Numbered from the stretch's first letter, positions 2,315 to 14,947 are shown. The stretch: DNA of 52,142 nt from a virus (IMGVR_UViG_3300000525_000005:1-52142); one strand, 5' to 3'. Made by a program: numbers and translations. The notes: generated by a model not told the origin, from the sequence alone.

Positions 2315-2950
2315 TTATACGTGCATTTCTTGTAGTTCGTCAATTAGAGACTGTGACCAGTTCTCATAACGGTGTTTCTCTGCTTCCATTTCAGGTAGGG
2401 TTTTCCATTCTGGTAAATGAATCTCTGAAGGATCAGGATCAACCATATCTGTAGAACTAAGCTCTATTGCATACACATAACCAGCATGCACTTGTCCTAC
2501 TTGGTTAGTATTATCCAATAAGAGTATATAATTCTCTATGAATTGAAATGGTTTAGTTAAATCAAGACGTAACTCTTCTTCAAGTTCACGCATGATACTT
2601 GGTGTTAGATTAAAGTTCTTCAAATCAATGTCACCAATATCTACATGCCCACCAAAACCACACGACAAAGAACCATGCAGACGATCTTCAGCACCTTTAG
2701 CTCTAGAGTAAGTTAGGATTTGATCACCACAACTGATCAGTACATAGGGAAGAACTTGAGGAAGTTGTTGAGCAATCCTGAATAGATCAGGATTTTTACT
2801 ATCTGCTACTTCACGAGAAAGAAAATGAAAATGTTTTTCGTCTACTTCAGCCATATTAAAGTCATAGACATTATTACCTTTAATTTTAGGAGGCATACCA
2901 ATTACTTCACTAAAAGATTTGCGTGTTACACATAATACTGGATTCATCAT
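2315..2950 (-). CDS. Nudix-family hydrolase (COG4112/YmaB-like)
   Basis: QVLPYV, RLHGSLSCGFGGHVD, RELEEEL Nudix box, VGQVH, ENWS. Confidence 0.8.
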   Translation of the reverse strand: MMNPVLCVTRKSFSEVIGMPPKIKGNNVYDFNMAEVDEKHFHFLSREVADSKNPDLFRIAQQLPQVLPYVLISCGDQILTYSRAKGAEDRLHGSLSCGFGGHVDIGDIDLKNFNLTPSIMRELEEELRLDLTKPFQFIENYILLLDNTNQVGQVHAGYVYAIELSSTDMVDPDPSEIHLPEWKTLPEMEAEKHRYENWSQSLIDELQEMHV

Positions 2951-3177
2951 TAATATTTTACCTTTGATTTGGCAACTCGTTGCCTGTTAAATGATATTAG
3001 CTCATCTACTTTTGAAGCATAAGCTAATGCGTCTTCTTTACAATGAATGACTTCATTGTTAAGTGTAATCCAACCTTTACCTCTATCAGTAAATACGGCA
3101 ACCAGTTCTCCGTTACCTACAATGATATTATCCTGTCCTGGAAATTGATCGTATTTAGCTGGATCTCTATGCCACAT
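2950..3177 (-). CDS. Hypothetical protein
   Basis: 75-aa ORF with GGAG RBS, coupled to the Nudix gene. Confidence 0.65.
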   Translation of the reverse strand: MWHRDPAKYDQFPGQDNIIVGNGELVAVFTDRGKGWITLNNEVIHCKEDALAYASKVDELISFNRQRVAKSKVKY

Positions 3178-3246
3178 AAACCTAACTCCAATGTAAACAA
3201 AAGTAATGTGAAGTTAGCACATACCTTGTTACAGAGGGGTTTTTAG

Positions 3247-3990
3247 TTACTTATTTAAGGCTAAGCTTAAGTGTTCCTTTAAATCAGACGTAGAAAGTCC
3301 ATTAGGTAGGGTTATAGGCGTTGCCCATGAAGGGTGATACAGATCCATCTCAGATTCTAGTTTGACCTTGTCATGGGCGATCTCAGGAAGTTCTTGCCAG
3401 CTCATTTCTTCTATCAAATTGTCATTGACCCATTTAAGTACATGTAGGTCATCTTTAATCATTAAATAGATAGCATCATGAATCAAAGAGACGGGGAATA
3501 TATCATAACGATATTCAGATACCCAGACCTTCTCCATGAACGCTACAGCAGCTCTATTATTCAATAGGCCATAACTCTGACCTGAGATAGCATTACCTAC
3601 GCTACGAGCCTCTGAGGAGCTTATAGTAGCTGTAGCACTATTACCTAGAATAGATCTGGCTAGTACAGGGGTTCTTACCCTTAAGCCAAATGCTACAGTG
3701 GCATATCCCAACTCACAGCACTCTTGTAGTTTACGAGCAGTCCAATCAGCAGACTCTTTATAGAGTGTGTGATAATTCTGAAAGATGGACTTGGATTCAT
3801 ACTCTGTAAAACCACAATTCTTCATAAGTCCTATGTGGGATCCTCCGTACGTAAGTAAAAAGGTAGGTTCTTTAGAAGCATCACGTACACTTTTAGAGTC
3901 CTTAACAATGCTGTTGATCTGGGATACGTTATATTCTTTGAGAGAGATTTCATTGATGGAATTAATATCACCTGTAATGAGAATCTCCAT
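3247..3990 (-). CDS. DNA polymerase family A, C-terminal subunit (motifs B and C)
   Basis: RDASKEPTFLLTYGG (motif B), AFGLRVRTP, NAISGQSYG, LIHDAIY (motif C); own AAGGAG RBS. Confidence 0.92.
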   Translation of the reverse strand: MEILITGDINSINEISLKEYNVSQINSIVKDSKSVRDASKEPTFLLTYGGSHIGLMKNCGFTEYESKSIFQNYHTLYKESADWTARKLQECCELGYATVAFGLRVRTPVLARSILGNSATATISSSEARSVGNAISGQSYGLLNNRAAVAFMEKVWVSEYRYDIFPVSLIHDAIYLMIKDDLHVLKWVNDNLIEEMSWQELPEIAHDKVKLESEMDLYHPSWATPITLPNGLSTSDLKEHLSLALNK

Positions 3991-3992
3991 AA

Positions 3993-4292
3993 TTATGTCT
4001 CCTTATCAAAACTACCCGTTAAAGGGATGACATCATAGTGAACCATACCATTATTAGTAAAGTCCTCTAAAGTGGTGGCATTACGGACAGAAGTAAGAAT
4101 ACGTTGAGCATACTCTGTTTCTTTAATGGCCCACTTATAATGTATATCATTAGAGAGGGTTTCAATTTCTTGTTCAAGACTAGTTATTAAATTATTTTGA
4201 ATGATATCAAAAGCAGTAGATGAATAAGCAGTCATTGCTGGTGATTGAATTTCTGTGTACTGGTCATACGTACCGTAGTGAATTATTTGCAT
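3993..4292 (-). CDS. Hypothetical protein within the polymerase insert
   Basis: 99-aa ORF coupled to neighbours. Confidence 0.6.
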   Translation of the reverse strand: MQIIHYGTYDQYTEIQSPAMTAYSSTAFDIIQNNLITSLEQEIETLSNDIHYKWAIKETEYAQRILTSVRNATTLEDFTNNGMVHYDVIPLTGSFDKET

Positions 4293-4756
4293 TAGGTTTC
4301 CCTATAGTAGAATTTATTTTCACATTCAATACAGTGAAGATAATTCATTTGTGAGCAATCAGATTGTGGTACAACATCATTAGGAAGATTACAGTGAGGG
4401 CAGTAAGCTACTAAGCAACTGTCAGCTACTTTATACTGGTTTAAAACCAGCATTTGATTGTACAGATTAGAAGTTTCTGATTCTACATAATCTTTACCAC
4501 AGTTTATAGGAGTATCCCCATAATGAGATGTATGAAAACCAATTATCCAATGATCATTAGGTATATCATCATGTATTACTTCTTCTCTCATGTCTGAAGA
4601 GATACTAGACCAATTAAGGCCACCATGGACTGATACAGGGATATGCTCACAACTAACACCATACCAAGGACTAGATGGCGGCAAGACTAAGTAACCATTA
4701 CCCCATCCCTGTTCCCTATGAGTATTCCATGTATTTTCTACAATGAAAGTTTTCAT
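4292..4756 (-). CDS. Conserved phage hypothetical protein with C-terminal zinc ribbon
   Basis: GNGY..LP, VHGGL, WIIGFHTSH..D motifs then CPHC...CIEC; start revised to ATG 4756 (ATGA overlap). Confidence 0.7.
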   Translation of the reverse strand: MKTFIVENTWNTHREQGWGNGYLVLPPSSPWYGVSCEHIPVSVHGGLNWSSISSDMREEVIHDDIPNDHWIIGFHTSHYGDTPINCGKDYVESETSNLYNQMLVLNQYKVADSCLVAYCPHCNLPNDVVPQSDCSQMNYLHCIECENKFYYRET

Positions 4757-4920
4757 GGCTGATCCCCGTATACAAAGCATTCAATATTCTCAGTGAACAT
4801 TCTAATGTCCTCATTATTAAAAGATTCCATGGCTTTATCTTTTGCCTCATCTTCAGTATCAGCATAAATAATGATAGTTCCTTCTTTATTCTCTGATATT
4901 AATACTTCATACTTATTCAT
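4753..4920 (-). CDS. DpnD/PcfM-like small protein, copy 3 (not in ORF track)
   Basis: MNKYEVLISENKEGTIIIYADTEDEAKDKAMESFNNEDI... 55 aa; GGAG RBS; ATGA overlaps at both ends. Confidence 0.7.
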   Translation of the reverse strand: MNKYEVLISENKEGTIIIYADTEDEAKDKAMESFNNEDIRMFTENIECFVYGDQP

Positions 4921-5093
4921 GATTCATCTCCTAGAATAAAGAATTCAACATGCTGGAAATCACCAGAGTCTAAGACATACTTCTCATCAGACCACTCATT
5001 TGAAACCATGTTCCAAGCTTCATCCCTTGATTCTGCTTCAATTTCCACTGTCTTTGAAGAAGTCTCTTCAATTAATACTGTATATGTTTTCAT
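4917..5093 (-). CDS. DpnD/PcfM-like small protein, copy 2 (not in ORF track)
   Basis: MKTYTVLIEETSSKTVEIEAESRDEAWNMVSNEWSDEKYVLDSGDFQHVEF... 58 aa; close to my recollection of the DpnD/PcfM consensus. Confidence 0.75.
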   Translation of the reverse strand: MKTYTVLIEETSSKTVEIEAESRDEAWNMVSNEWSDEKYVLDSGDFQHVEFFILGDES

Positions 5094-5096
5094 ATT

Positions 5097-5276
5097 TTAA
5101 TTGCCTTCTTCATTAATTAAAGTCACATTTCCACCATCATACGTAGCTTCCCTTAAATCCATATTAAAAGTATCTTGGTATGTTTGAGCATCATCATAAG
5201 CTTCTTCCGCAGAGTTAGCAGAAAATGTTCGTTCTACATTCCAAGTTTCTGATATTTTAAAAGTATATGTTTTCAT
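5097..5276 (-). CDS. DpnD/PcfM-like small protein, copy 1
   Basis: MKTYTFKISETWNVERTFSANSAEEAYDDA...; start revised to ATG 5276 behind AAAGGA. Confidence 0.65.
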   Translation of the reverse strand: MKTYTFKISETWNVERTFSANSAEEAYDDAQTYQDTFNMDLREATYDGGNVTLINEEGN

Positions 5277-5293
5277 ACTGTTTCCTTTTATGT

Positions 5294-5833
5294 TTAAGTA
5301 TCTGAGTATTTCCATATAAAATTACCAGCAGTTTTTAATTTACCTTTGGCACACTTAACAATAGATGGATGAGTAACACCTGTCCTTTCTGATGCAATAG
5401 TTATAGAAGCATAGGAATCTATATACTCACTATCTAAAGTGTACTGACTAACGCTACGAACAGGGTAGCTAACAGTAGATTGAATTTTAGAGCTATTACG
5501 ATTATCCCAATAAAGGTTATCTGCATGTATGTTATGTAAATTACCATCAATATAGGTTAGGTACTTATAGCTATAGGGGTTATCCATAAACTGTTCAGCT
5601 ACCAAATGGGCTACCTTTTCGCTTGATGATTTACCTAAGTAATAAAGATGAACCCTAGGAAACTTACCTGTAAAGTCTAGTTTCCTAGAATTACCATAGA
5701 AGTTAGGTGAAATAGACCTCATCTCACCGTTACGATTAATGGCATAAGCAATGGTGTACCTTTTAACATGGTAAAACTGATCGTCAGGATGTACCTGACT
5801 ATTGGTAAAATTAACGGGTCTAGAAATTATCAT
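5294..5833 (-). CDS. Free-standing HNH-NUMOD1 homing endonuclease, apparently degenerate
   Basis: VAHLVAEQF..NP, LTYIDGNLHNIHADNLYW (Y where HNH has H); C-terminal VSQYTLD..YASI..AS...KTAGNFIWKY NUMOD1. Confidence 0.8.
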   Translation of the reverse strand: MIISRPVNFTNSQVHPDDQFYHVKRYTIAYAINRNGEMRSISPNFYGNSRKLDFTGKFPRVHLYYLGKSSSEKVAHLVAEQFMDNPYSYKYLTYIDGNLHNIHADNLYWDNRNSSKIQSTVSYPVRSVSQYTLDSEYIDSYASITIASERTGVTHPSIVKCAKGKLKTAGNFIWKYSDT

Positions 5834-8105
5834 TTTATATCCTTAAACTTGTTATAGAATTCAATGGCACTATAAGTAGTACCATCATGATTTATAGTGT
5901 CTGTATCTTTAAAGGATAAGCCATTCACTTCAAAGCAGCGTTCTGTAGTAGCTTGTTGGACATTAGGAAGTTTATCAGGCCAATAGGTATGTGCTCTAAG
6001 AGCATGGCCGTCATACCCGTCAATGTAGACTTTTATCTTATTTTTATCTTTAGTTAGTAGAGCATTGATTCTATCTTCTACAATTATGTTCGCTACAGTT
6101 CGTTAGGTTGTAACCGTGGGCTAACCACTGCTATACGTCACCACATAGTTCAGACTATATCTTCACCTTCAGCATTACCTGTTTAGGTGTCCTCCGCTTC
6201 GGATCACTTGACCCTACTCCCCAATGGGATAGTCGTTAAACGTCCAAGTACTTAGTACAAGTTTCGCTTGGTATTGTCTCGTTGAGAGTTCTACCAAATT
6301 CAAAGGATTTAACACAATACATTTCTGTACTGTTCGCCTAGATTTAAGCTAGAGAAATCAGCTCCTACGAATAAATAACCCTTTGGGGGTTTAAAGCAGG
6401 ATTTAACCGCTTTTCCATATTTACTCCCTCCAGATGGTAAATTCTGAAGGTTAATCTTAGAGCTAGACATCCTACCAGAAAGTGTACCGTTGAGATTGAA
6501 GTTACCATGTAAGTAATGCCATCCACCTTTTTTAAATGATTCCTTGAATGCTGGTATGAAAGTGCTAAGAATCTTATCAACTTGGCTTAAGTTAATTAGA
6601 GACTCAAGTAATTCCTTAATCTCATCATCCTTAGTATGATTAATGAGCTTGGCTAGTATCTTAGCACCAGTAGCAGGATTCTTGGTAGGGGTGAAGTCAA
6701 TCTCAGGTAATTGTAATACCTCATAAAGAAGTACTTGTAATTGGTTAGGACTGCTAGGATTGAAAACCATATCATTAACCTTATCCATACCATGTACTTT
6801 GGTTTTTAGTTTAGAGTTAATATCTGCAAGAGCATTAACTTGTATAGTATGAATAGCATCTTTGGTATATTTACTATCTAAGACAATATCTAGATTCTGA
6901 TTACTTAAATTTAATAAGTAGGCTTCAGTTTCTTTAACTTGACCCATATCAATAGGCATACCCATTAGCTCCATCTGAACGATAAGCTTAATACTAGGTA
7001 ACATAATTTCTTCATAGATCCCTAACTGATCATCTTTGAGCATCATAGGATAGTACTTGTTGAATACATAATAAGTAGCTACACAGTCTTCTACATTATA
7101 AATTAGTAATTCATCTACTGGTATTTTAGAGATATCAGTAACATCAATACCCCAATTACCCATGTAAGGTTGGGCTAGTACTTTTAAACCAAGTTCATTA
7201 CCTGCTGTAGTATTGGTAGCTAAGTAAGCAATAATCTTAGTGTCGTGTATGTTCTTACACATAACGTCTAGTCCATGAAGCATACCTCTATAGTCTAGTG
7301 GATGTTTCATAAAACAGTTAAAGATAATCTGTTTGATATCAAAAGTTGCATTATGATAGATAACCTTACCGGTATATCTTTCAAAGAATCTCTTAATAAG
7401 GGTATGAATTTTACTGGTGTCATAAGCTTTATGTTTAATATGGGCTGATAGTCCAGACCTCTCATTCCATGCAAATGCAATAGAACCTAAACCACCTTCA
7501 TTAAGTTTTAAGCCATAAGTCTCAACATCACAAGTGATTGTAGGTTTGTTATGTAAGCCGTCTAAGGCCAGTTGAAAGGCTTCAAGGTCAGTATTCTGAT
7601 AGTACTGAGGGTCTAACAGAACATCTTCACCTAGAGGTACTAGAGTACCATTGATATGATTGGCTAATGTCTCAATAGACATATCAATTTTATGAATCTG
7701 ATTTGGATTATGTAAAAGTACACCGTAATTTAAACCATAACAAATAGATATATGAGTGAATCCTTTAACTGAGCAAGGTAATACATATCCTGTATGTTGT
7801 TCTGCTTTACGCTCACCAGTTAATACTTTGAAGTAAGCAGCATCAGCTACAAAGACTGTAGTGATACCTAGTTTAACTAAAGCTGGTAATAGGTAGGAGA
7901 GGTATTTTTTGGCTTGTGTAGCAGTAACCTTGTCGTTAGGGTAATGTAAATCAAATGCAATTAATTGATCTAAAGCAACTCCTAACTTTACAAGTGGGTC
8001 TACGTAATAGTTCTTAATCTTATCTGGTTTAAAGTATTTCTCTTTGATAAGAATAGCCACTTGGTATTCTTCTTCTAAGTTTCCTGCAAAAGTAGCATGA
8101 TTCAT
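5830..8105 (-). CDS. DNA polymerase family A, N-terminal subunit; exons 8105-6347 and 6080-5830, 669 aa spliced
   Basis: Exonuclease motifs CDVET, HNATFD, YNVED; TLSGRMSS; splicing restores GADFSSLEDRINALL...GYDGH (motif A). Confidence 0.9.
6081..6346 (-). ncRNA. ORF-less group I intron (266 nt) in DNA polymerase
   Basis: 5' exon ends in U, intron starts UAA and ends G; R element aacGACUAu and S element AAGAUAUAGUC; P1 GCU|UA with UAGGC; P10 UCUA with UAGA; removal restores the frame. Confidence 0.92.
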
Positions 8106-8112
8106 AATAATC

Positions 8113-8553
8113 CTAAAGTAATGAGTTAAGTAATTGCTCCCTAATAATGTCTCTTATTTCCTCTACAGAGTCAGGTAATTTACAATCACTCTCTGGGTAA
8201 ATAACACCTTCTAGGAAATAATGAGCATCCTTGGGGAACAGAGTATACAGATCTGAAGCTGTACTATCTCTTAAGAAATCAAATAATAAGTATTGAAGTT
8301 TCTTGTAAGAGTCCTCAATTTCAATATTATTAGTAGAGGTAGAATCAAACCATGACCTAAGATCTTTATGAAGGGGTTTAACAGATAATCCTTTAATAAG
8401 GATATAAGTTTTCCCACCATAAAAATAATTAGGGGATCCTGATTGTTCTTTTTGAGCTGAGTAAATAGATTGATACTGGTGGGTTATTTCTTTACGAGAC
8501 TGCTTAAATATAGAGGATAATATAATCATTAGAAAGGGTTTAGGCTTACTCAT
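8113..8553 (-). CDS. Hypothetical protein upstream of polymerase
   Basis: 146-aa ORF with AAGGA RBS. Confidence 0.7.
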   Translation of the reverse strand: MSKPKPFLMIILSSIFKQSRKEITHQYQSIYSAQKEQSGSPNYFYGGKTYILIKGLSVKPLHKDLRSWFDSTSTNNIEIEDSYKKLQYLLFDFLRDSTASDLYTLFPKDAHYFLEGVIYPESDCKLPDSVEEIRDIIREQLLNSLL

Positions 8554-8572
8554 AGTATTTCCTTATAAGCAC

Positions 8573-8608
8573 AAAAAAGTCCCTTATATATATATAATAT
8601 AAGAGACT
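8573..8608 (-). terminator. Intrinsic terminator with TA-rich loop
   Basis: Minus strand agtctcttata...tataagggact followed by ttttt. Confidence 0.7.
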
Positions 8609-8628
8609 ATAAGTAACTAGTTCCTTCC

Positions 8629-8656
8629 GTACACAAGTACTGACGTACTTGTGTAC
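8629..8656. repeat. Perfect 12-bp inverted repeat, loop GTCA on the minus strand
   Basis: gtacacaagtac-tgac-gtacttgtgtac. Confidence 0.9.
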
Positions 8657-8729
8657 TGCTAATAGAGACTAGTATAGGGTAGTGGTGTTGGGGTTAAGGT
8701 TATGTTTTTTGAGTGGAAGAGACAAATGC

Positions 8730-8758
8730 AGTTTAACGGTGATTTGAAAGTCTGTCAA
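8730..8758 (-). promoter_or_regulatory. Sigma70-like promoter
   Basis: TTGACA (8758-8753), 17-nt spacer, TAAACT (8735-8730). Confidence 0.7.
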
Positions 8759-8761
8759 GAA

Positions 8762-9115
8762 TTAATTAAATTTTTCTTTAATTACTTCCATTAGAGGTAA
8801 CATGTCCCTAGATACATCTGAGTATTCTTCCATCTCTTTTTCTGAGATAAATGCACGATCACCTTCTTCTGCATAATCTCCTTGGACAACTATTTCATCA
8901 CCCGCCCAACAACCAACAAGCTCATCCAGAGGGTACTCTAATCTATTAAGATCACCTCCACCTCGTCCATTACTATTAGCAAGTAGTATAAATAAGAGTG
9001 TAGAAGTAGAAGTTGGATGACCAACCTGTTCTAAGAGCTTTAATCCATTATCTAAGATATGTGGATTTAATAACTGCTTCTTCGTTTTATTATAAATCAA
9101 GTGATACTGTCCCAT
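8762..9115 (-). CDS. Conserved phage hypothetical protein
   Basis: MGQYH..N.TK...PH...GLKLLE and GCWAGDEI.V.GDY motifs. Confidence 0.7.
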   Translation of the reverse strand: MGQYHLIYNKTKKQLLNPHILDNGLKLLEQVGHPTSTSTLLFILLANSNGRGGGDLNRLEYPLDELVGCWAGDEIVVQGDYAEEGDRAFISEKEMEEYSDVSRDMLPLMEVIKEKFN

Positions 9116-13055: not shown

Positions 13056-14947
13056 CTAGTAAATATGGCGGGCTAAGCTAAGTATCCAATCCTTAAGCTC
13101 CTTTTTAAGTAGATTAGGCTGACGAGCTTTGATCTCTCTTAATGCGCAGATCTGTAACTCTGGTGGGAAGCGACCAAGGTAAACAGCACAGGCTTTAGCA
13201 TTTTCTGGGAGGATGTTATGAGCGATTAGGCCCATAATAGCCCAACGAATACTCATGTTAGAGCTGATTTCAAGACCTTCTGGATCATTAATAATGTCCT
13301 CAAAGCTATGTAAGCTCTTATAAAGTGTTAAGAAGCTTAGGAACTCAGTAGCAACACCCTCACCTAATAAAGAGCTCACAAGGGACTTGTGAGTGCTGTC
13401 TAGCTTTTTACCATCAGTTGTATCAGATAGCATTTCAAGAGTGCGTGGGCAAGCGTACGGAGTTGTTGCGTCAGGATCAAAGGTATAGATGTATTTAGGG
13501 AATCGTCCAATAAATGAAGTGATACGAATATCAATGTGGCCAGCAGCCCATTCCATCCACTCTTTATGGTTTAATTCTAAATAGAAGTGAGCGAATCGTG
13601 AAATCAGTGCTGTGCTCATAGGATTAACAATCGCATTATCATCATCCATGTTACCAGCAGCTAATTTGAATAGGTTAGGATGAAGTTTATGCTGTCCAAT
13701 CATATGATCTAGTGTGAATTTATAAGCAGCAGCCTGAGTAGACTGTTTAGCTGAGTTAAATTCATCGCATTGTTTTCTATATAAGTCGCAACACTTACAT
13801 ACGTTCTCATTACTTACGTAAATGAACTGCTACATGTCGCCATGCAGAGAAGACCATATCAAGACCCTAAAGTTCTTAGGGTCGTTACCGTTTCCAACAT
13901 CATTAGCTTATGTTGTACTCCCATTTCAGGGATGGTCGTTTGGCGTTTAAATGAAATTTGTCGCATATCCAAATTGCTGTAAATTATTACTATTTACATA
14001 TTCATCATAAGCTTTAGCAGCTTGTTTTTCACAAGTAAATCTTCCTAGAGGAATGGTCTCGCCTTTGAACCCAATACATACACACCATTTGTTCCTCTGC
14101 TTAGACCATGAAACACCTACGTACTGTGAAGAGCTGTTTTTACGCTTCTTACTAGCATTAGTGAATCTGTTTTTTTGAAGTCCTGTATCCCAGGCATGTT
14201 GACAGTTCTCAGACTGTGTAACCCATTCTAAGTTAGTAGGTGAGTTATTAAGTTGATTTCCGTCTTTATGATTGACAACAGGTTTATTCAAAGGATTAGA
14301 TACAAAAGCTAAAGCTACTAAGCGATGAATCTGGAATTTATGTACTTTACTATTTCTGTATAAGTTGATACATAAATACCCTCTGTGATTGGTATATGGT
14401 TTTACGTAATTCCTGTTTTTATACTTGTATTTAGAATTAGGGCATCTTCTTACGTTTCCTAAATTAGATACATTATAAGGTAGGTCTTGAACGTCTTTCC
14501 AAATTTCATTATTTAGCACAGGATTGTCTCTTTGTATTAGTAAGTTGAACTCAAGTATAACGAGTAACCAACCATAATACAATTAAATGAGAGTTTCCCT
14601 GTTTAGGTAACTTTTGACATACAATTACTTGTATGAAAGCCCGATTATTTAAGCATCACCAACCAACCGTCATAACCATCAGGGATAGGGTCACCTTCTA
14701 ATGGGAAAGTATCAAATGGGATGAAACTAGCTACACCTTCTGAGAAGCCAGGAAGCCCATTAAAATCACTGGGGTCCATATCAGTTAATCGTAGATCAAT
14801 AAACTTAAGGTTACGTTTCTTGGCAAGCTGTCTTCCAATAGAAGATTTACCAATTCCAGGAGATGAATGCAGGAATGGGCAGATAGGTTTCTTAGCATCC
14901 CACAGCATTTCAATATGTGGTTTAACTTGTGAGATAGTAACTTGCAT
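13056..14947 (-). CDS. MoxR-like AAA+ ATPase (N4 gp24-like); exons 14947-14652 and 13767-13056, 335 aa spliced
   Basis: Walker A SSPGIGKS, IDLRL; splicing restores Walker B WLVMLDEFNSA; AAGN, ALISRF, CPRT. Confidence 0.9.
13768..14651 (-). ncRNA. Group I intron (884 nt) carrying a homing endonuclease ORF
   Basis: Exon ends ...AUGCU, intron starts UAAAUAAUCGGGC and ends AAUG; P7 GACCA/UGGUC; P10 AUCG with CGAU; AACUCUC...GAGACAAU shared with the polymerase intron. Confidence 0.92.
13947..14582 (-). CDS. Intron-encoded NUMOD4-HNH-AP2 homing endonuclease (start uncertain)
   Basis: EIWKDV..YNVSNLGNVR; HRLVA, VNHKDGN..NN...NLEWVT..EN..H; SSQYVGVSW...W..LGRF..E..AAKAYD. Confidence 0.9.
   Translation of the reverse strand: MYYGWLLVILEFNLLIQRDNPVLNNEIWKDVQDLPYNVSNLGNVRRCPNSKYKYKNRNYVKPYTNHRGYLCINLYRNSKVHKFQIHRLVALAFVSNPLNKPVVNHKDGNQLNNSPTNLEWVTQSENCQHAWDTGLQKNRFTNASKKRKNSSSQYVGVSWSKQRNKWCVCIGFKGETIPLGRFTCEKQAAKAYDEYVNSNNLQQFGYATNFI

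Follow-up and report, generated by a model that had tools for sequence, protein, structure and literature searches.

The window analysed here is a 52,142-nt stretch of viral DNA (IMGVR_UViG_3300000525_000005:1-52142) in which the DNA polymerase locus occupies positions 3,247-8,105. The polymerase belongs to family A (PolA, N4 gp39-like), and the phage is N4-like. On the minus strand the locus reads exon 1, intron, exon 2, a TGA stop, six ORFs and the ORF of the C-half:

6347..8105, minus strand: exon 1 of the N-half, covering the 3'-5' exonuclease and thumb, and the palm as far as motif A (…GADFSS), from Pfam and alignment to intact polymerases
6081..6346, minus strand: ORF-less group I intron of 266 nt (Rfam RF00028)
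5953..6080, minus strand: native part of exon 2, EDRINALLTKDKNKIKVYIDGYDGHALRAHTYWPDKLPNVQQ, fingers helices, from translation
5833..5952, minus strand: N-tail of 40 codons, absent from intact polymerases in alignments
5294..5833, minus strand: decayed HNH homing-endonuclease gene, 179 aa (PHROG HNH families)
5097..5315, minus strand: gap ORF, 72 aa, no family match in Pfam or PHROG
4917..5093, minus strand: gap ORF, 58 aa, DpnD/PcfM-like (Pfam PF14207, 1.7e-17)
4753..4920, minus strand: gap ORF, 55 aa, weakly DpnD/PcfM-like (Pfam PF14207, 3.3e-4, below cut-off)
4292..4780, minus strand: gap ORF, 162 aa (phrog_2164, 8.3e-10)
3993..4292, minus strand: gap ORF, 99 aa, no family match in Pfam or PHROG
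3925..3990, minus strand: C-leader of 22 codons, MEILITGDINSINEISLKEYNV, about 21 of which intact polymerases lack (alignments A1, A3 and A6)
3247..3924, minus strand: native part of the C-half, with motif B, motif C and the stop codon (Pfam DNA_pol_A)

Exon 1 matched the Pfam families DNA_pol_A_exo1 (1.7e-10) and DNA_pol_A (1.1e-24, profile positions 12-164) and ends within motif A, at DFSS. The native part of exon 2 shares 60-78% identity with relatives, both intact and split, and the spliced N-half comes to about 669 aa, ending at a TGA at 5832-5830. The C-half ORF runs from an ATG at 3990 to 3247 (247 aa), and its DNA_pol_A match covers profile positions 203-373. Its AAGGAG (4004-3999) lies eight bases 5' of the ATG, inside the end of the 99-aa gap ORF, and upstream of the ATG open reading continues for only 4 codons. 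From the N-half stop to the C-half start is 1840 nt; counting ORFs of 40 aa or longer, this gap holds exactly six on the same strand. A sequence-only reading of this DNA had already placed the exonuclease and motif A in the N-half after intron removal, a true stop at 5830 (the last base of the TGA), motifs B and C 1.84 kb away behind an AAGGAG of their own, and six ORFs in between; each of these was found as described.

Taken together, the two halves carry the 3'-5' exonuclease and motifs A, B and C of PolA, and they align end to end with the intact polymerases of Pokken, P184 and Vibrio phages. In C-half numbering, motif B contributes R36, K40 and F44 and motif C contributes H171 and D172, while Y48 and G49/G50 of motif B were read by eye; the motif names assigned to residues of either half are those we take to apply. 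The break is in the loop directly before the O-helix (motif B), a loop presumably exposed on the surface, as we picture PolA structures. Logan contigs covering 3200-4763 and 4828-8150 bridge both junctions; they come from the single DNA run that holds the stretch, probably the source sample and so not independent support.

The intron within motif A (DFSS-L/EDR) matched RF00028 over the full model length, scoring 73.1 bits (gathering score 50; E 1.2e-17). Joining 6347 to 6080 yields DFSSLEDRINALL, as in relatives, and exon 2 read from 6080 restores DFSSLEDRINALLTKD, a pattern that agrees with relatives letter for letter. Thus, a group I core is detectable and the exons rejoin to native sequence. 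The intron that Vibrio phage JA-1 has at the identical site bears an HNH gene.

The second break is of a different make. Alignment to five intact N4-like polymerases showed native sequence up to about ...LPNVQQ and again from about V-SQINSI, leaving about 36-40 extra residues at the C-terminus of the N-half and about 21 at the N-terminus of the C-half. The extra tails that had been proposed for both halves, of about 40 aa and about 20 aa, are therefore real.

The ATG of the first gap ORF overlaps the N-half stop (ATGA). This ORF matched phrog_959 (2e-11) and phrog_59 (4.4e-11) and reached 21.3 bits with Pfam NUMOD1, just below the 22.8 cut-off, and so shows similarity to the HNH (I-HmuI-like) family together with a NUMOD-type DNA-binding end. 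It had no match to Pfam HNH_3, for which the sole match in its own genome at E<=1 was at 14205-14330. At the position of the catalytic N-H, present in 11 of 11 compared relatives, it has T-Y, so that it lacks the His of N-H…N…N, which we take to be the catalytic residue; the alignment also shows a loss of about 95 aa from its middle region. The first gap ORF is thus a recognisable yet decayed HNH endonuclease gene, a small correction to the earlier reading. The 162-aa ORF found only three tblastn matches, all distant, among 50,697 phage records.

In relatives, the same gap holds an intact HNH gene, a truncated one, no gene, or a Tad2-like gene, which fits the earlier suggestion that it has become an insertion site for cargo. 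It is gene-free and 110 nt long in L127, contains only HNH remnants in L148 and L151, and carries the Tad2-like gene (8.6e-25) in L086. The split thus appears to outlive the endonuclease. Tail and leader are retained in L127, L148 and L086, where the endonuclease has been lost or replaced.

The split proved widespread in other N4-like phages. When 1503 candidates were scored, 939 proteins of 135-433 aa matched the C-half at E<=1e-10, many of them exactly 247 aa long with 100% coverage and encoded on 65-75 kb contigs, and the N-halves of relatives (639-685 aa) bear the tail. Both halves are 53-72% identical across many relatives with all catalytic motifs retained; R36, K40, F44, G50, H171 and D172 are invariant in 34 relative C-halves, a list of columns that excludes Y48 and G49. 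In pairs free of a frame break in motif B, the native parts gave pN/pS of 0.05-0.46. Some relatives have inserts of 5 or 10 nt in motif B; the window has no such insert. An intact polymerase elsewhere, which the earlier reading had set against a split enzyme, was seen neither in three split genomes that are 99-100% complete, where PF00476 matched polymerase pieces only, nor in the window's own record (about 70% complete), where the only polymerase A matches were the two halves. A second polymerase could in principle lie in the missing 30% or so.

From sequence comparison, we consider it probable that the only family A polymerase of this phage consists of two polypeptides that assemble unjoined, in the manner of Aeh1 NrdA/mobE, with an HNH cassette as the origin of the break and tails that help assembly. 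The N-half supplies the exonuclease, thumb, motif A and first fingers helices, and the C-half the O-helix (motif B) and motif C. To judge from the relatives, a free-standing HNH homing-endonuclease cassette would have made the break, its gene since decaying in this phage; the split would be stable enough to outlast the endonuclease, and the space between the halves would have acquired other small genes. The N-tail and short C-leader would most likely help the halves to find or hold each other, as experiments have demonstrated for the tails of NrdA-a/NrdA-b in phage Aeh1. The sequence-only reading had likewise proposed an active site built from two polypeptides with the tails as a docking module. 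The first part is well supported, given the conserved split, the catalytic residues kept and the lack of a second polA in the three 99-100% complete genomes; the mutual docking of the tails is a plausible hypothesis.

A rather unlikely alternative is that the two-piece polymerase needs no more than its large native palm/fingers interface to work and that the tails are passengers, read through from cassette DNA, made up of upstream signals of the endonuclease and the start context of the C-half, and without a role in assembly. In the window and most relatives, the tail end does overlap the ribosome-binding site and ATG of the endonuclease, over its last 6-8 codons, so its conservation may be partly at the DNA level. 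The leader pattern M-E-I-x-I…I-K-E-I…E-Y-N recurs among the 247-aa relatives, yet its conservation is weak, it was modelled as coil (pLDDT 62-73), and no homology was detectable between the leaders of the two split classes (E 0.09). Some pN/pS values are near 1: over only 21-40 codons, the leader reached 0.92-1.02 in two of eight pairs and the tail 0.66-0.79 in two of eight (range 0.14-0.79). In addition, heterodimer formation itself is described for Aeh1 as not needing the tails (PMC3045599).

Other properties of the N-tail argue against a passenger. A second split site, that of coliphage Pollock, lies 25 residues upstream, and its tail is homologous to that of the window (hhalign probability 98.1%, E 1.2e-13); the fold pattern persists at 17-34% identity across lineages and both insertion sites. 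Third codon positions are the most variable in both classes (identities by codon position 0.44/0.45/0.35 in 14 class-1 tails and 0.74/0.74/0.47 in 5 class-2 tails), indicating that the N-tail is conserved as protein. In a single-chain AlphaFold2 model of relative P0124, the tail forms a compact unit of four strands, as a small beta-meander, and a helix with high confidence (pLDDT 77-89), whereas the motif A region, lacking its partner, fell below 50. The persistence of tail and leader where the endonuclease is gone or replaced also speaks against passengers. A profile built from 18 tails matched 82 cluster representatives at E<=0.001; of the 81 sequences retrieved, 57 were flagged as polymerase by a motif screen, and the other 24 were inspected together with flagged sequences up to 140 aa. 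Six inspected matches were unrelated repeat or intein proteins; in the rest the tail was the extreme C-terminus of a polymerase fragment, as it was, by match position, in the long flagged sequences. The N-tail thus looks like a conserved, compact mini-domain of about 35 aa that may travel with the cassette. How it might dock is another matter: mean net charge is -1.5 for the tail and -2.1 for the leader, and since both are mildly acidic, pairing by charge, as proposed for the tails of NrdA, does not apply here.

An extension of the two-polypeptide explanation, which we put forward tentatively as a possibility short of an even chance, is that the N-tail and a matching leader form a portable docking module, maybe an intein stump, that moves with the HNH gene, lands at different points and in different lineages, and leaves a working two-piece enzyme. 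If so, selfish elements could make their insertion harmless by a third route in addition to introns and inteins, and the permanent gap would be a slot for other genes, anti-defence genes included.

We think it very unlikely that the halves are still joined into one polypeptide by trans-splicing, with the tails acting as a split intein of degenerate or very small form. The second half of the N-tail is similar to the N-terminal motif of inteins, the profile of the tails matched P0260 (E 1.2e-4) in a stretch where an intein begins (Pfam Intein_splicing 4.4e-19), and the leader ends in a nearly invariant Asn; Crona et al. raise the same origin where they discuss the NrdA tails (PMC3045599). However, among relatives the tail starts with C, T, A, V or F, so a conserved Cys/Ser/Thr nucleophile is absent, and the leader Asn (Asn21, in at least 90% of relatives) is followed by a nearly invariant Val (V22, alignment A1) instead of Cys/Ser/Thr. 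Tail and leader sum to about 58 aa, whereas the minimum HINT domain is well above that size; blocks B and F are lacking, and no Pfam intein or Hint match was obtained at E<=10. The tail profile also matches TPR and carbohydrate-binding repeat proteins, and the intein match may be a chance similarity of pattern.

It is scarcely credible, too, that RNA splicing removes the 1.84-kb gap as a large or degenerate intron, even with a real group I intron 250 nt upstream in the same gene and a JA-1 polymerase break that is an intron with an HNH ORF. The genome announcement of Pollock terms its HNH gene 'intron-encoded' (PMC4319500), and the assumption of splicing extends in this literature to JA-1. Against this, a permissive Rfam scan of 2500-9000 (E<=1) matched the motif A intron only and nothing at the second break, the Pollock split site had no Rfam match at E<=1, and eight split loci had none at the gathering score. 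The flanks are tail and leader under coding selection, with their own stop, ribosome-binding site and start, and in L127 only 110 nt separate the halves. The earlier observation that neither a group I core nor an intein C-terminus lies at this break was therefore borne out. A dead gene, with replication by the host polymerase or by a polymerase encoded in the 30% of the genome that is missing, would suit the incomplete record and the decayed endonuclease but is barely believable against the retained motifs, the identity across relatives, the low pN/pS of the native parts and the lack of another polA in complete split genomes.

Experimental knowledge of genes that homing endonucleases break and short tails rescue comes essentially from a single case, Aeh1 NrdA, whose authors predicted that such tails would be general but hard to detect by similarity (PMC3045599). 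Here, many uncultured N4-like phages share this layout in a replicative family A polymerase, whose N-tail is recognisable by sequence across lineages and two insertion sites. Natural variants are at hand for comparison, with the endonuclease present, absent or decayed and with two split sites. With this system one could ask what keeps a split enzyme together, whether the tails descend from inteins, and by what steps a break turns into a lasting site for cargo genes. Genome notes have assumed that HNH genes of this kind in N4-like polymerases lie in introns, an assumption that these results correct.

Among known systems, the split family B polymerase gp43A/gp43B reportedly was described by Petrov and Karam with an endonuclease gene between the parts in one case; we know of no conserved tail module there. 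Like the window, these T4-related Aeromonas phages have a replicative polymerase as two genes (cited in PMC2677866). The polymerase family and the split site differ. Bonocora and colleagues are said to have reported in 2011 on T4 topoisomerase gp39/gp60 with mobA. As discussed in PMC3045599, that split is likewise linked to an endonuclease and has tail-like extensions, and a short untranslated insert bypassed by ribosomes adjoins the cassette. The enzyme is a different one, and its 50-nt gap has elaborate signals, whereas the window has no insert; the bypassed insert is comparable to the 5- and 10-nt motif B inserts of the window's relatives.

Fractured genes with split inteins, as presented by Dassa et al. 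2009 (PMC2677866), share phage replication genes in two parts, an endonuclease in the gap and short extra peptides, and intein-less fractures are noted there as well. The window differs in intein residues and size, and ligation is not expected. Vibrio phages JA-1 and VchO139-I, in the description of Fouts et al. 2013 (PMC3670811), also have an N4-like DNAP with an HNH gene inserted in it. There, however, the polymerase is broken at motif A (DFNSL|), with group I signal flanking the ORF (29.6 and 17.6 bits), and the break corresponds to the ORF-less intron of the window, not to the second break. Closer is Escherichia phage Pollock (gp44/HNH/gp46, KM236242), N4-like in its announcement (PMC4319500), with two polymerase ORFs around an HNH gene and a homologous N-tail. 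Its split lies about 25 residues upstream of the window's, after KVY and before GYDGH ('class 2'), and its gap holds the HNH gene alone, compared with six ORFs here.

Friedrich and colleagues reportedly described in 2007 how mobE splits Aeh1 NrdA-a/NrdA-b. The comparison with nrdA/mobE made in the sequence-only reading is apt: in both, an essential replication-related enzyme, continuous in homologues, is broken close to the active site into two ORFs of one operon that are translated separately and flank a free-standing HNH gene (decayed in the window, intact in relatives), each half has a unique tail absent from unsplit homologues, and RNA or protein splicing is absent. The Aeh1 tails are essential according to Crona et al. 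2011 (PMC3045599) and oppositely charged, whereas those of the window, on a family A polymerase, are both acidic and putative in function. The window further differs in its decayed endonuclease, in five further ORFs in the gap, and in an N-tail that appears to be a conserved folded module of many lineages and two sites.

The phage represented by the window is N4-like (Schitoviridae), and the window is the entire IMG/VR record of 52,142 bases, with an estimated completeness of ~70%. Its polymerase pieces share 49-57% protein identity with the polymerases of N4-like Vibrio, Klebsiella, Acinetobacter, Erwinia, and other phages. No close relative was found in the phage collection, where blastn gave just short matches of 64-70% identity. 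Among contigs from IMG/VR and metagenomes, C-terminal halves (C-halves) were at most 62% identical at near-full length, with one partial match, locus L136, at 69%. The features that define the split polymerase gene are as follows.

8105-6309, minus strand: ORF encoding the exonuclease and the initial portion of DNA_pol_A, reaching a stop just past ...GADFSSL
6361-6131 (Rfam match), minus strand: complete group I intron, 73.1 bits, E 1.2e-17
5832-5830, minus strand: TGA that ends exon 2
5833-5831, minus strand: ATG of the next ORF, overlapping the exon 2 TGA
3995-3993, minus strand: TAA at the end of the sixth gap ORF, which contains AAGGAG eight bases ahead of the ATG at 3990
3990, minus strand: ATG of the 247-aa C-half ORF with the remainder of DNA_pol_A

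Splicing, with the 5' site after U6347 and the 3' site after G6081, yields DFSS-L-EDRINALLTKDKNK, a sequence that is uninterrupted in both split and intact relatives. The first gap ORF is followed by five more, closely packed. Because just four open codons precede the C-half ATG, there is no hidden exon upstream of it. The intron itself (6081-6346, minus strand) is ORF-less; in Vibrio phage JA-1, an intron with an HNH gene (locus L178, 5191-5990) occupies the same codon of motif A. By eye, the two have core sequence in common, and they look like members of one intron family, without and with an endonuclease.

The sequence-only reading held that the polymerase is split into two genes with extra residues on both halves. 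We compared the pieces with five intact polymerases (Pokken, P184, and Vibrio phages 1.026.O, SBP1, and 1.245.O), which read without a break through ...GYDGHxLRAxxYxxxxMPDIxxxxVESINSIxxxYxxLRxxSKAPTFALTY. The N-terminal half (N-half) of the window tracks these proteins to LPNVQQ and then continues for ~36-40 further residues, the tail, before its stop. The C-half begins with ~21 residues, the leader, that have no counterpart in the intact polymerases, and its native sequence starts at V-SQINSI. Since both tail and leader are absent from the intact alignments, the description of the extra ends was correct, and the split itself is confirmed. Some BLAST rows (e.g., Pokken) that seemed to span the tail in intact polymerases were rejected, since these alignments had merely been extended without gaps across unrelated residues.

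The split is old and widely distributed. A C-half search confined to proteins of 135-433 aa gave 939 matches at E<=1e-10; among the best 120 of these, many are exactly 247 aa, with full query coverage and 62-69% identity, on contigs of 65-75 kb. The first 21 residues of these 247-aa relatives follow the pattern M-E-I-x-I...I-K-E-I...E-Y-N. Searching with exon 2 recovered N-halves of 639-685 aa covering 91-96% of the exon, tail included, one of which is a Moraxella marmotae DNA polymerase in the NCBI annotation. Their tails share the pattern R/K-C-F/Y...N-G...F...D-x-I-x-Y-x-G-x-x-Y-x-G-x-E/D-F-Y. We then classed 173 rows with a usable C-half match, comprising 167 loci on contigs of IMG/VR and public metagenomes and six GenBank phage loci (L001-L006): 134 are intact, 19 are split at the site seen in the window (class 1), 10 are split between KVY and GYDGH, ~25 residues further upstream (class 2, which includes coliphage Pollock), and 10 were left unclassed. 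In this count some loci duplicate one sequence, and L011, with one in-frame stop, is doubtful. Three split relatives that are 99-100% complete (two with terminal repeats) contain no PF00476 match beyond the pieces.

On a FastTree phylogeny of 279 C-half rows and 191 columns, the distribution of split and intact genes requires no fewer than 25 changes; the well-supported branches by themselves imply at least 12 for class 1 and at least 10 for class 2, in a tree that recombination near the split site may blur. The changes counted on this unrooted tree may be gains or losses. The scatter fits repeated homing or repeated loss rather than a single ancient event. Some N4-like polymerases are cut more than twice: the complete genome G002 (locus L013) has three separate PF00476 pieces, and P0211, a 124-aa database protein, has a C-terminal intein end at its start (...VYDLEIEEDHCYIANDIYVHN|S; Pfam Intein_splicing 0.0017), directly ahead of ...PNLTNLP, and a class-2 tail at its other end.

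No second intron emerged from a permissive Rfam scan of 2500-9000, and a gathering-score scan of the whole window returned only the motif A intron; these results agree with the earlier remark that no group I core was seen at the break. Intein features are also lacking, as that remark noted for the intein C-terminus. The conserved Asn of the leader is followed by Val, the first tail position among relatives is C, T, A, V, or F, and Pfam at E<=10 on tails and leaders, which together amount to ~58 residues, gave noise only, with no intein or Hint match. Among sequencing runs containing the stretch, no RNA run is listed and one DNA run is, probably the source sample. A contig "joint" from 3438 to 7201 was discounted, as a foreign contig of high depth supplied its entire support of 22 letters. 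A promoter and terminator scan of 3000-8400, which is not informative for N4-type promoters, found promoter-like sites to be rarer than in shuffles. As far as sequence can tell, nothing joins the two halves.

Several observations support the N-half tail well as a functional module. Although attached to the polymerase at different places, the tails of the two classes show homology across 39 columns (hhalign probability 98.1%, E 1.2e-13). Conservation by codon position is lowest at the third position, both in class-2 tails (n=5; 0.47 vs 0.74/0.74) and in class-1 tails (n=14; 0.35 vs 0.44/0.45). In eight pairs of ~40 codons each, tail pN/pS was 0.14-0.79 vs 0.06-0.40 for the native flank. The synonymous distance of the tail was below that of the upstream native flank in seven of the eight pairs, with small site counts, which would fit a cassette whose movement is more recent than the divergence of the host gene. 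An AlphaFold2 model of P0124, a 667-aa N-half relative (15-row alignment), shows residues 634-665 as four short strands and a helix with pLDDT 77-89. In the same model, pLDDT falls to <50 around motif A and the fingers, which are without their partner.

An 18-tail profile searched against 1.84 billion representatives gave 82 matches at E<=0.001, and a motif screen placed a polymerase flag on 57 of the 81 retrieved. Inspection covered the 24 without a flag and those flagged matches no longer than 140 aa. Six were unrelated, namely repeat proteins (TPR, carbohydrate-binding, and others) and a polymerase B fragment bearing an intein, and in the remainder the tail is the extreme C-terminus of a polymerase fragment; it is C-terminal in the long flagged matches too. 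No unsplit polymerase was seen to contain the module.

The first ORF (179 aa) of the gap between the halves matches HNH endonuclease families at 2e-11 and is decayed: it is without ~95 residues of the middle region, and the catalytic N-H, kept in 11 of 11 compared endonucleases, is T-Y. Pfam gave no HNH_3 match for this ORF, and an HNH_3 search of its own genome at E<=1 found 14205-14330 only. Of the small gap ORFs, one has a strong match to DpnD/PcfM and another a weak one, and the 72-aa ORF resembles them by eye; a 162-aa ORF matches an unnamed PHROG, and a 99-aa ORF has no match. By eye, adjacent small ORFs of 72, 58, and 55 aa (4753-5315, minus strand) all have an M-K-T-Y-T...EEA-like layout, and they look like a tandem gene triplication within the gap. 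At 4734-4857, the contigs of the run fork into two 124-nt variants with 5 differences and depths of 35 and 25, suggesting that the sample contains two strains with differences within the small gap ORFs.

In other split loci, 212-881 nt separate the BLAST matches of the halves. Some relatives have an intact HNH gene there, of NUMOD4-HNH-NUMOD1 or HNH-AP2 architecture; the L151 gap has a NUMOD1-only remnant, the L148 gap a 36-aa remnant, and the 110-nt L127 gap no gene. In L086 (9532-9999), a Tad2-like Thoeris anti-defence gene (8.6e-25) sits where the endonuclease gene is otherwise found. The split thus persists after loss of the endonuclease, and the gap accepts other genes, which fits the proposal that it serves as an insertion site. 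The 1.84-kb gap of the window, with six ORFs, is the largest seen.

An insert of 5 or 10 nt interrupts motif B of the C-half in 8 of the 19 class-1 loci (seven distinct cases, as L123 and L124 are one sequence).

~8001 in L012 and ~8001 in L018: motif B insert
~10127 in L047 and L051: motif B insert
~10001 in L065: motif B insert
~6144 in L123/L124: motif B insert
~1153 in L125: motif B insert

The first codon of the insert is a stop, directly after a Thr codon, and in five of the seven distinct cases its last codon is a second Thr codon (e.g., ACT-TG-ACT-TTC or ACT-TGAGTAA-ACT-TAT); removal of the insert restores ...SKAPTF(A/L)LTYGG. None of the 10 class-2 or 134 intact loci has this break, nor does the C-half of the window. 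The insert has the look of a place where ribosomes make a short hop between a take-off and a landing codon, much as in T4 gene 60, beside mobA, and it may protect the target site of the endonuclease. Judged from their protein ORF starts, at MKNCGF or just before TYGG, the database ORFs P0098, P0121, P0045, P0101, and P0002 (96% identical to the window) fit as further cases.

A second gene of the window is also interrupted (13056-14947, minus strand), an AAA-type ATPase with Walker A GIGKS that by eye reads as N4 gp24-like.

~14650, minus strand: end of ATPase exon 1, ...GWLVML
14582-13947, minus strand: intact NUMOD4-HNH-AP2 endonuclease ORF

The open frame upstream of 13703 (DEFNSAKQ...) restores the Walker B motif LVMLDEFN, and a weak group I signal covers 14602-14487 (22 bits, E 0.005); the interruption is probably an endonuclease-bearing group I intron. 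The same kind of interruption is reported for the gp24 homologue of JA-1 (PMC3670811).

The leader is weaker evidence than the N-half tail. Its pattern is kept within class 1, no homology to class 2 leaders is detectable, it is modelled as coil in the C-half alone (pLDDT 62-73), and its pN/pS is near 1 in two pairs. An uncontrolled complex prediction of tail (residues 41-82 of P0001, alignment A2) and leader (C-half 1-30, alignment A3) scored 0.29 against a mark of 0.32, which weighs on neither side of the question of binding. It is a reasonable inference that the tail would dock on the leader, and most likely the polymerase works as two subunits, assembled non-covalently.

HNH genes that interrupt N4-like polymerases are noted in the Pollock report (PMC4319500) and by Fouts et al. 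(PMC3670811), where introns were assumed. For JA-1, whose break is at motif A, that assumption is right; at the Pollock break Rfam finds no intron, and the Pollock tail is homologous to that of the window. A literature search, mainly outside subscription journals, turned up no account of a split family A polymerase with conserved tails. Dassa et al. describe fractured genes with split inteins and note intein-less fractures as well (PMC2677866), and Crona et al. report that the tails arising from mobE insertion are essential for the split NrdA of Aeromonas phage Aeh1, predict similar tails elsewhere, and raise a degenerate-intein origin for them (PMC3045599). The Aeh1 NrdA tails carry opposite charges, whereas tail and leader here are both mildly acidic, and charge complementarity of that style was not seen. 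The split polymerase belongs with the Aeh1 NrdA kind of endonuclease-fragmented gene.
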